From: Escherichia coli
GTDB taxonomy: Bacteria; Pseudomonadota; Gammaproteobacteria; Enterobacterales; Enterobacteriaceae
DNA length: 64,000 bases
NCBI RefSeq assembly: GCF_022846255.1
Contig: NZ_AP025682.1
Reading direction: 5' to 3' (one strand)
Shown: one piece after another, positions 16,964 to 20,718 of the stretch
How the letters are laid out: each line of letters begins with the position of its first letter
Numbering within the stretch: position 1 is the stretch's first letter
Program-made: the position numbers and the translations under genes
The notes under the pieces: generated by a model
What the model was told of the DNA's origin: nothing
The model's input: the letters and a program-made list of their open reading frames with translations, nothing else
Databases searched by the model: none

Positions 16964-18094
16964 TCAGGAGAAGTAGTTCAACAAGGTCGCAATTACCGTA
17001 CGCTGATTGACGGGCGACAGGTTGTAGAACAACGGCAGGCGCAGCAGGCGCTCGCTCTCTTTGGTGGTGTAGCGATCTTCACCGTGGAACTCACCAAAGC
17101 GTTCCCCCGCAGGGCAACCGTGCAGCGGAATGTAATGGAACACCGCCATGATTTCCGCTTCTTTCAGAAAGTTAATCAATGCGCTCCGGTCATCAATATC
17201 CCGCAGTTTAATGTAGAACATATGCGCGTTCTGCACGCAGCCATCGGGAATCGACGGCAGCTCGATACGCCCGGCTTTCGCCAGAGGTGCTAACGCATCG
17301 TAGTAGTTTTGCCACAGCGCCAGACGCTGCTGATTGATACGATCCGCTGCTTCCAGTTGCGCCCACAGGTACGCAGCTTGCAGATCGGACATCAAATAGC
17401 TGGAGCCAATATCGCGCCAGGTATATTTATCGACCTGACCACGGAAGAACTGGCTGCGGTTTGTGCCTTTTTCACGGATGATCTCTGCTCGTTCGATCAA
17501 CGCTTTATCGTTAATCAGCGTCGCGCCGCCTTCACCACCCGCCGTGTAGTTTTTGGTTTCATGGAAGCTAAAGCAGCCAATATGACCAATGGTTCCCAGC
17601 GCACGCCCTTTGTAAGTGGACATCACGCCCTGAGCGGCATCTTCCACCACAAACAGATTATGCTTCTTCGCCAACGCCATAATGGTGTCCATTTCGCAGG
17701 CCACACCCGCGTAATGGACCGGCACGATAACGCGCGTTTTGTCGGTGATCGCCGCTTCAATCAGCGTTTCGTCGATGTTCATGGTGTCCGGGCGAACATC
17801 CACAAAGACGATTTTCGCGCCACGCAGCACAAAGGCATTGGCGGTGGAGACAAAGGTGTAGCTCGGCATGATCACTTCATCGCCAGGCTGGATATCGAGC
17901 AGCAGCGCCGCCATCTCCAGCGAAGCGGTGCAGGATGGCGTCAGTAACACTTTGGCGCTGCCAAAACGTTGCTCCAGCCACTGCTGGCAGCGACGGGTAA
18001 AACCGCCATCGCCACACAGTTTGCCGCTACCCATTGCCGACTGCATATAGTCGAGTTCGGTTCCCACCACCGGCGGTGCGTTAAATGGAATCAT
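16964..18094 (-). CDS. wecE: dTDP-4-dehydro-6-deoxy-D-glucose aminotransferase (PLP-dependent)
   Basis: 376-aa ORF; DegT/aminotransferase family; matches WecE/RffA. Confidence 0.93.
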   Translation of the reverse strand: MIPFNAPPVVGTELDYMQSAMGSGKLCGDGGFTRRCQQWLEQRFGSAKVLLTPSCTASLEMAALLLDIQPGDEVIMPSYTFVSTANAFVLRGAKIVFVDVRPDTMNIDETLIEAAITDKTRVIVPVHYAGVACEMDTIMALAKKHNLFVVEDAAQGVMSTYKGRALGTIGHIGCFSFHETKNYTAGGEGGATLINDKALIERAEIIREKGTNRSQFFRGQVDKYTWRDIGSSYLMSDLQAAYLWAQLEAADRINQQRLALWQNYYDALAPLAKAGRIELPSIPDGCVQNAHMFYIKLRDIDDRSALINFLKEAEIMAVFHYIPLHGCPAGERFGEFHGEDRYTTKESERLLRLPLFYNLSPVNQRTVIATLLNYFS

Positions 18095-18098
18095 GTGA

Positions 18099-18773
18099 TC
18101 ACCTGTATAACCAGTACGCGGTGCTTTCTACATTCGCACCACTTTGTATGTATCGTTTAAGCGCGGCGGTGTTGCCCATCTGGGTCGCCACCCGCAAAGT
18201 TGTTTTACCGCGAGCATACGCCCAGTTTAGCGCTGTTTGCATTAGCTCAGCACCTGCACCGCGTCCAGCCAGCAGGCCAATTCGCGCATCTGTCGCATTG
18301 AGTTCCCGTAAAGAGACATAGCCGCGAATATCGCCGGACGCCGCACGTAAAATCAGACATTGATGATCAAAGGTGCCGCGCACGGCATTTTCAATCCACT
18401 GCGCATAAAAGCGACCGCTGGCGTCAGGCGCATACCATGGCGCACGAAAACGGCTTTGCGCAAATGCGGCGCTGGCTAACTGACGTAATGCGGGAATATC
18501 GGTCTCTTGTGCCACTACAGCACCGCTATCACTGACATTGTTCACGGGTAGCGCCAAATCAACTTCACCTTCTACCAGGGAGAATCCCAGCTGTTGCAGG
18601 GCATCCAGTTCACCCGTATTTGATGCCGCAATTTTGGCCTGCACCCGTGACCACGGCGCTAACGCGTCTGGCGTCAGGAGCGGTGCTTCAGACGTAATGC
18701 GCACAATGGCACTGTTAACACCAAAGAAGGCGTTTTCCCAGGTTAGTGGCTCAATACTGGCGCGGACGGGCAC
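18099..18773 (-). CDS. wecD: dTDP-fucosamine acetyltransferase (GNAT)
   Basis: 224-aa ORF; overlaps rffH 3' end by 23 nt; a shorter 181-aa form from an internal GTG is possible. Confidence 0.85.
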
Positions 18774-19632
18774 GAAGTAACTCCAGCAGATATTGGCCGT
18801 AGCCAGTTTTCGCCAGCGAGCTGGCGGCGCGCTTCACGCCTTCGTCATCAAGCCAGCCGTTACGCCAGGCGATCTCTTCCAGGCAGGCAATCTTAAAGCC
18901 CTGGCGTTTTTCCACCGTCTGTACAAAGGTGCTGGCTTCAATCAGGCTGTCGTGAGTGCCAGTGTCCAGCCAGGCAAATCCGCGCCCGAGCAGTTCAACG
19001 GTCAGGTTGCCCGCCTCGAGGTACATCTGGTTGATGGAGGTAATCTCCAGTTCACCACGCTCCGACGGCTTCACCTGCTTTGCGTACTCCACAACTTTAC
19101 TGTCGTAGAAATAAAGCCCGGTCACCGCCCAGTTTGATTTTGACTGTTTTGGCTTTTCTTCCAGAGAGATAGCGCGGAAATTGTCGTCAAACTCCACGAC
19201 GCCAAAGCGTTCTGGATCCATTACCTGATAGCCAAATACCGTCGCCCCTTGCGTGCGCGCCGCAACATGACGCAGCTTCGGACTGAAGCCCTGACCGAAG
19301 AAGATGTTATCGCCCAGCACCAGACAAGATGGCTCACCATTAAGGAAGGTTTCACCGATGATAAATGCCTGCGCAAGACCGTCCGGGCTGGGCTGTTCGG
19401 CATATTCCAGCTGGATACCGAACTCACTACCATCGCCCAGCAGGCGCTGGAAATAACCTTTGTCTTCCGGCGTAGTGATGATGAGAATTTCGCGGATACC
19501 GGCCAGCATCAGCACCGACAGCGGATAGTAAATCATTGGCTTATCGTAAATCGGCAACAGTTGCTTCGATACGCCGCGCGTAATCGGATGCAATCGGGTG
19601 CCGGAACCGCCCGCCAGGATAATACCTTTCAT
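18751..19632 (-). CDS. rffH: Glucose-1-phosphate thymidylyltransferase 2
   Basis: 293-aa ORF starting [18 protein letters not shown]...; matches RffH. Confidence 0.95.
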
Positions 19633-19650
19633 GTTTGCCTCCGCTGAGAA

Positions 19651-20718
19651 TTAGCCGTTCAGACCTAAACGCTCGCCCTGATAGCTGCCGTCCTGCACCT
19701 GCTTCCACCAGCTTTCATTAGCCAGATACCACTGAACCGTTTTACGCATTCCACTTTCAAAGGTTTCCTGCGGCAGCCAGCCAAGTTCACGGGCAATTTT
19801 CGAAGCATCAATGGCATAGCGTAGGTCATGCCCTGGACGGTCAGCGACAAAGGTGATCAGATCGCGATAGTGCACCACGCCGTGCGGCTTGTTCGGAGCC
19901 AGTTCTTCCAGCAGCTCGCAGATGGTTTCCACAACCTCGAGATTCTTACGCTCGTTGTGACCGCCAATATTATAGGTTTCACCGACTTTCCCGGTGGTCG
20001 CCACGCAATACAGCGCGCGGGCATGATCTTCAACATACAGCCAGTCACGGATTTGCTGCCCGTTGCCATATACCGGCAGCGGTTTACCCGCCAGCGCGTT
20101 GAGGATCATCAGCGGGATCAGTTTTTCCGGAAAGTGGTAAGGACCGTAGTTATTCGAGCAGTTGGTGATAAGCGTCGGCAAACCATAGGTCCGCAGCCAG
20201 GCGCGCACCAGATGGTCGCTGCTGGCTTTTGACGCGGAATAAGGGCTGCTCGGCGCATACGGCGTGGTTTCGGTGAAGAAATCATCCGTCGAGTGCAGGT
20301 CACCATATACTTCGTCGGTGGAGATATGATGAAAACGGAACGCTGATTTTTTATCTTCCGTCAGCGCAGTCCAGTAAGCCCGCGCCGCTTCAAGCAGTGT
20401 ATAAGTCCCGACAATGTTGGTTTCAATAAACGCTGCCGGGCCGTCAATAGAACGGTCAACATGGCTTTCGGCTGCCAGATGCATGACACAGTCTGGCTGA
20501 TACTCAGTGAATACGCGCGCCAGTTCTGCCCGATCGCAGATATCAACTTTCTCAAAGGCAAAGCGCTCGCTTTGCGCGACCGGTGCCAGCGACATCAGGT
20601 TTCCGGCGTAGGTCAGCTTATCGACCACCACCACCGCGTCGCTCGTTTCGTTGATGATATAACGCACCAGCGCCGAGCCAATAAACCCGGCACCACCTGT
20701 TATCAGAATCTTTCTCAT
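19651..20718 (-). CDS. rffG: dTDP-glucose 4,6-dehydratase 2
   Basis: 355-aa ORF with N-terminal GGAGFIG Rossmann motif; matches RffG. Confidence 0.95.

Follow-up and report, generated by a model that had tools for sequence, protein, structure and literature searches.

The closest known counterpart of the gene considered here is wecD (rffC) of Escherichia coli K-12, whose product (WP_001145183.1) is an acetyltransferase of dTDP-fucosamine. Acetyl-CoA-dependent acetylation of this sugar nucleotide has been reported for the K-12 protein, which is identical to the one encoded here, in work that the reviews cite, and a review describes Y208 as the general acid. The structure has also been solved, and two open-access papers describing it assign a folded N-terminal domain in 2FT0 to residues 3-69 together with residues 219-224. 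The WecD that was crystallised was a tagged recombinant product of the long open reading frame, which proves that the long form folds rather than that it is natively produced. The start of this long form is already known in the sense that RefSeq, UniProt and the PDB all carry it.

A shorter version of the same protein has nevertheless been deposited. Entries of 181 residues named 'TDP-D-fucosamine acetyltransferase' (AAN45301.2, AAP18897.1, ABB68264.1 and ADE89987.1 among them) derive from the same gene and the same frame and correspond to residues 44-224. Both this annotation and the family model TIGR02382 begin at an internal valine codon and leave out 43 residues of the N-terminal domain that are conserved.

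The other relevant point of reference is the class of coupled, overlapping operon pairs with 4-nt ATGA or GTGA junctions or with longer overlaps. The arrangement of rffH and wecD resembles these in that the wecD start and its Shine-Dalgarno (SD) sequence both lie within the 3' end of a same-strand gene upstream, but the usual overlap in such pairs is 1 or 4 nt, whereas rffH and wecD overlap by 23 nt. The wecC-wecD junction found in other species is of the classic kind, with a 4-nt GTGA/TTGA or a 1-nt overlap.

Here, we have analysed wecD in a 64,000-nt stretch of E. coli DNA (contig NZ_AP025682.1), which we refer to as the window. An earlier note on this DNA had treated the start of wecD as ambiguous, considering the sequence compatible either with a 224-residue protein or with a 181-residue protein begun at an internal GTG. 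That ambiguity is a historically real matter of annotation, and it is settled in favour of the 224-residue form: wecD is almost certainly translated from the GTG at 18773, yielding a two-domain WecD of 224 residues. Compared with K-12, the locus shows no difference of substance in WecD; the gene has the same 675 nt, the same 23-nt overlap, the same rffH-wecD-wecE order and the same two-domain architecture. Over 901 nt, the DNA of the window is 97.9% identical to that of K-12 and 99.9% identical to that of strain A25, with the WecD protein unchanged.

Methods

The DNA-level comparison covered the Enterobacteriaceae. A genome scan with one genome per species yielded 80 further loci, with 65-95% protein identity, giving n = 81 with the window included. 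More distant homologues, down to about 30% identity, were compared as proteins only; they came from a HMMER search run in full against a set of 1.84 billion representative proteins. SD strength was expressed as the energy of the duplex with the 16S anti-SD, and RNA folds were set against shuffled controls. An AF2 model of WecD was built from alignment A1.

Results and discussion

The wecD reading frame

On its minus strand the window carries wecC-rffG-rffH-wecD-wecE, which is part of the enterobacterial common antigen (ECA) cluster; the features of interest are collected in Table 1. Much of what the earlier note said of the frame is borne out by the sequence and the ORF list, namely that the minus-strand ORF at 18099-18773 encodes 224 residues, that it shares 23 nt with rffH (whose TGA stop occupies 18753-18751) and that a GTG at 18644-18642, which is codon 44, would give 181 residues and no overlap. 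The start codon at 18773, which had been taken for an ATG, is in fact a GTG; the methionine heading the translation in the ORF listing reflects the start-codon convention of the tool.

Reading the sequence, we found no in-frame ATG among codons 1-180 of wecD, and it is because an in-frame ATG is missing near the 5' end that the start could ever appear ambiguous. In-frame GTG codons arising by chance are trivially expected. In the other direction, reading on from the in-frame stop at 18836, the GTG at 18773 is the first canonical start to be met. A start upstream of 18773 is impossible, given that zero canonical starts lie between it and the TGA at 18836-18834, and the protein therefore cannot exceed 224 residues.

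Table 1. Positions in the window of wecD, rffH and the sequence features that bear on the wecD start
Feature	Position	Strand	Detail or basis
rffH (rfbA in PGAP), glucose-1-phosphate thymidylyltransferase, 293 aa	18751..19632	minus	ORF list; TIGR01207 rmlA, 530.9 bits; RefSeq annotation
In-frame TGA closing the wecD frame upstream	18834..18836	minus	
wecD Shine-Dalgarno GGAG, 7 nt upstream of the GTG	18781..18784	minus	within rffH codons Leu-Glu (CTG GAG)
wecD start codon GTG	18771..18773	minus	direct sequence reading
23-nt overlap, rffH codons R287-Y293 plus TGA with wecD codons 1-8	18751..18773	minus	
wecD (rffC) CDS, long form	18099..18773	minus	224 codons plus TGA stop; ORF list
WecD N-terminal region	18567..18773	minus	AF2 pLDDT 96-98; E4-9, H11-17, E21-26, H35-38, E43-49
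Internal GTG, codon 24	18702..18704	minus	valine sense codon, not a start
Internal GTG, codon 44	18642..18644	minus	ordinary valine sense codon; start of the obsolete 181-aa annotation

Identity of the encoded protein

The protein is WecD, the dTDP-4-amino-4,6-dideoxy-D-galactose (dTDP-fucosamine) acetyltransferase, and over residues 2-224 it is identical to the chain in PDB entries 2FS5 and 2FT0 ('TDP-fucosamine acetyltransferase'). It scores far above the cut-off of both family models, although the two, of which TIGR02382 is the older, differ in how much of the protein they cover. NF008212 (232 positions) gives 357.5 bits against a cut-off of 219 and matches residues 1-224, while TIGR02382 (191 positions) gives 323.3 bits against a cut-off of 195.1 and matches residues 44-224, starting exactly at residue 44. 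Pfam PF00583 and PF13302 match residues 89-208, the C-terminal GNAT domain, and among 36 diverse homologues the catalytic tyrosine, Y208, shows a conservation of at least 90%. With scores above the equivalog cut-offs, the GNAT domain, the N-terminal domain and a gene position directly upstream of wecE (rffA), the protein belongs to the WecD/RffC family.

Distant homologues argue for the same N-terminus. Their alignments start at residues 1-12 of the query and at residues 1-15 of their own sequences. The alignment of 36 proteins, whose identity to the query is 29-55%, shows no substitution of W12 or F17 and a conservation of at least 90% for F16; each of these residues is located upstream of residue 44.

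The N-terminal domain

The partial-GNAT domain at the N-terminus, about 70 residues long, is present in the long form only. The AF2 model has a mean pLDDT of 96.9, with values of 96-98 across both residues 1-43 and residues 1-70, although AF2 was possibly trained on 2FT0 and the model is thus not independent evidence. In this predicted structure V44 falls within the strand at 43-49, so a protein starting there would miss one half of a domain that is compact. The enzyme is both conserved and structured over residues 1-43.

Conservation of the start codon and the ribosome-binding site

In all 81 species a canonical start (ATG, GTG or TTG) lies 10-16 codons before the invariant W12, a count which does not represent 81 independent events given that the species are phylogenetically related. 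The start stands at the exact aligned position of the E. coli codon in 68 of the 81 and within five codons of it in every one. The codon used is GTG in 55 species, ATG in 17 and TTG in nine, and this interchange at the equivalent of 18773 indicates that it behaves as a start codon and not as a valine codon. Start conservation holds whichever gene lies upstream, be it rffH (46 species), wecC (34) or rffG (one), and whichever form the junction takes (an overlap of 23, 4 or 1 nt, or a gap), and wecE lies downstream of wecD in 81 of 81.

The SD sequence points to the same codon. In the window, the duplex with the anti-SD amounts to -5.9 kcal/mol for the GTG at 18773, the best value of all in-frame candidates, and across the 81 species the mean at the start is -5.3 kcal/mol compared with an internal background of -2.5 kcal/mol. 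RNA folding did not distinguish the two candidate initiation regions from their shuffled controls (z = 0.10 and 0.22), and with the value of 0.10 there is no evidence of occluding RNA structure around the wecD start.

Alternative starts

It is conceivable that both starts are used, with the 224-residue protein as the main product and a minor 181-residue isoform arising by internal initiation at GTG 18644 in E. coli and at codon 44 in the other species that have GTG there. E. coli genes with in-frame internal starts do exist, as described in the Ribo-RET preprint. GTG occupies codon 44 in 53 of the 81 species, and across all 81 the mean SD pairing ahead of this codon, at -3.6 kcal/mol, is slightly above the internal background. 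The remaining species have GTA (17), CTG (six), TTG (three) or GTT (two) at this position, however, and the internal start is not conserved, since 25 of the 81 carry a codon there (GTA, GTT or CTG) that is not a start. Synonymous variation just ahead of it, in codons 38-43, is not suppressed either (0.40 compared with 0.36-0.41 elsewhere). The marks of a functional internal start, a conserved start codon together with a conserved SD or suppressed synonymous variation, are thus absent at codon 44. The isoform would also lose two strands and one helix of the N-terminal domain. The main text of the Ribo-RET preprint does not mention wecD, and the names wecD, rffC, rffH and b3790 do not occur in the TetRP supplements searched; neither source is informative on this point. 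Taken together, we consider a minor isoform of this kind very improbable. If it were made, a 181-residue protein lacking half of the N-terminal domain might alter the composition of the WecD dimer or its activity.

Still harder to credit is the view that only the short form is made, with translation starting at GTG 18644 and the 107 nt that follow the rffH stop acting as an untranslated spacer. This reading has on its side the records deposited from a number of Shigella and E. coli genomes, as well as the start of TIGR02382 at residue 44; it removes the gene overlap, and the 181-residue sequence scores above both family cut-offs. The supposed spacer nevertheless has the signature of coding DNA. 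Across the species, codons 9-43 have a pN/pS of 0.375, where codons 45-224 have 0.245 and the adjacent codons 45-79 have 0.28, and the fraction of non-consensus bases at codon positions 1, 2 and 3 is 0.23, 0.18 and 0.41, respectively, so that variation is greatest at the third position. In each of the 81 species the spacing between W12 and V44 is exactly 32 codons, and neither indels nor stops occur. Codons 9-43 therefore evolve as coding sequence, and the invariant W12 and F17 would both fall within the spacer. The wobble at codon 44 counts against this reading as well, there being no start codon at all in the 25 species noted above, as do the weak SD in the window (-2.2 kcal/mol) and a start within a β-strand, which would delete half of a folded domain. 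We regard the chance that only the short form is produced as negligible. The most improbable start of all, to the point of being practically impossible, is the GTG of codon 24 (18704), which is in frame downstream of the rffH stop and would give a 201-residue protein without overlap, but which varies widely between species (GTG in only 38 of 81, GTT in 12, GTC in eight, GTA in seven, and others including CTG, GCG and ATA), has the weakest SD (mean -1.6 kcal/mol; -2.8 kcal/mol in the window) and lies downstream of the invariant W12 and F17.

The suggestion that either start is compatible with the sequence does not, therefore, survive; the SD, the conservation of the start, the wobble at codon 44, purifying selection on codons 9-43, W12 and F17, and the solved structure all favour the 224-residue form. 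With the GTG at 18773 as the start, the GTG at 18644 is a plain valine codon within a β-strand of the N-terminal domain. The case also illustrates that comparative codon evidence can fix a start site without experiment.

Overlap with rffH and possible translational coupling

The 5' junction of wecD takes the form of the 23-nt overlap in 44 species, of a 4-nt overlap (GTGA/TTGA) in 15 and of a 1-nt overlap in three, and the remaining species have a gap. Chance does not account for the 23-nt overlap, because every species with an intact rffH keeps it, these being 44 of the 46 that have rffH sequence upstream. The RmlA family model reaches no further than residue 286 of the 293 residues of RffH, and the wecD initiation region thus shares its sequence only with a tail of RffH that lies beyond the conserved fold. 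Codons 2-8, which lie in the overlap and are dual-coding, are the only part of wecD in which synonymous variation is suppressed, at 0.13 compared with about 0.37 elsewhere. A same-strand overlap of 23 nt need not, then, signal a wrongly placed start, and the overlap here is both real and conserved.

Both the start and the SD of the downstream gene lie inside the upstream gene on the same strand, and we infer from this geometry that translation of rffH helps initiation at wecD. Ribosomes translating the end of rffH might hold the SD and GTG of wecD open for initiation, or might reinitiate there, either of which would couple translation of the two genes. A coupled arrangement would also fit the overlaps of 4 nt and 1 nt that are seen in species with wecC as the preceding gene. 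At the other end of the gene there is another tight operon junction (window 18092-18101), where 4 nt (TGATCACATG) separate the wecD stop TGA at 18101-18099 from the wecE ATG at 18094-18092.

The 181-residue form in public databases

An exact-sequence look-up found the 224-residue form on at least 1000 contigs and the 181-residue form on 17, the records of the latter including ones from Shigella flexneri, from S. boydii and from some E. coli genomes. The 181-residue form is a truncated gene call; it would go back to an earlier choice by annotators, one that kept the genes from overlapping. In the region of WecD residues 1-44 (window 18642-18773), TIGR02382 appears to have been built from this truncated annotation and omits the 43 conserved N-terminal residues. 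The truncated records and the boundaries of TIGR02382 persist in public resources; the importance of this is one of annotation hygiene and extends little beyond it.

A separate irregularity was seen in the cluster at 90% identity that contains WecD (P0271/P0272), in which RfbA and WecD members are mixed and the representative is a 293-residue RfbA. This is a database artefact, and chaining is its probable cause, by way of ORF calls that are fused or frameshifted, P0002 (276 residues) being an example.

Further observations on the compared loci

In several Citrobacter, Salmonella, Kluyvera and other loci an ATG stands in frame nine codons upstream of the wecD GTG, inside rffH (L006, L008-L010, L012, L014, L018-L020, L027, L029, L033, L034, L038, L040, L054, L065 and L074). 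This probably explains gene calls of 233-234 residues (P0046, P0079, P0100 and P0114). E. coli has no start codon nine codons upstream of the GTG, and the ATG is therefore not conserved. One of these loci, L065 (CACSKA010000013.1), is titled 'Chryseobacterium sp. 18061' and yet has a typical Enterobacteriaceae rffH-wecD-wecE arrangement, with RffH 93.5% and WecD 68% identical to those of the window; the assembly is probably mislabelled or contaminated.

In 34 of the 81 Enterobacteriaceae, wecD follows directly after wecC and both rffG and rffH (compare window 18751-20718) are missing from the ECA cluster. These are loci L005, L011, L016, L017, L024, L029-L032, L034, L035, L037, L046, L047, L053, L055-L057, L062, L063, L066-L070, L072, L073 and L075-L081, the region concerned lying upstream of position about 1500 of the locus. 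L015 retains rffG only, and L007 and L039 retain only fragments of rffH. The rffG-rffH pair of the ECA cluster is evidently dispensable or has been lost repeatedly, and the missing function is presumably supplied by rfbB and rfbA elsewhere.

In two of the loci from which rffH is gone, L029 and L034, the stretch of about 35 nt before the wecD GTG (locus positions about 1465-1500) still resembles the 3' end of rffH, reading GGCTATGGCCAATA...GGAT...CCGTG where the window has GGCTACGGCCAATATCTGCTGGAGTTACTTCGTG; the resemblance is clear in these two loci only and was judged by eye over those 35 or so nucleotides, the alignment of spacers being poorly parameterised. The deletion of rffH in L029 and L034 seems to have spared the region in which wecD is initiated.
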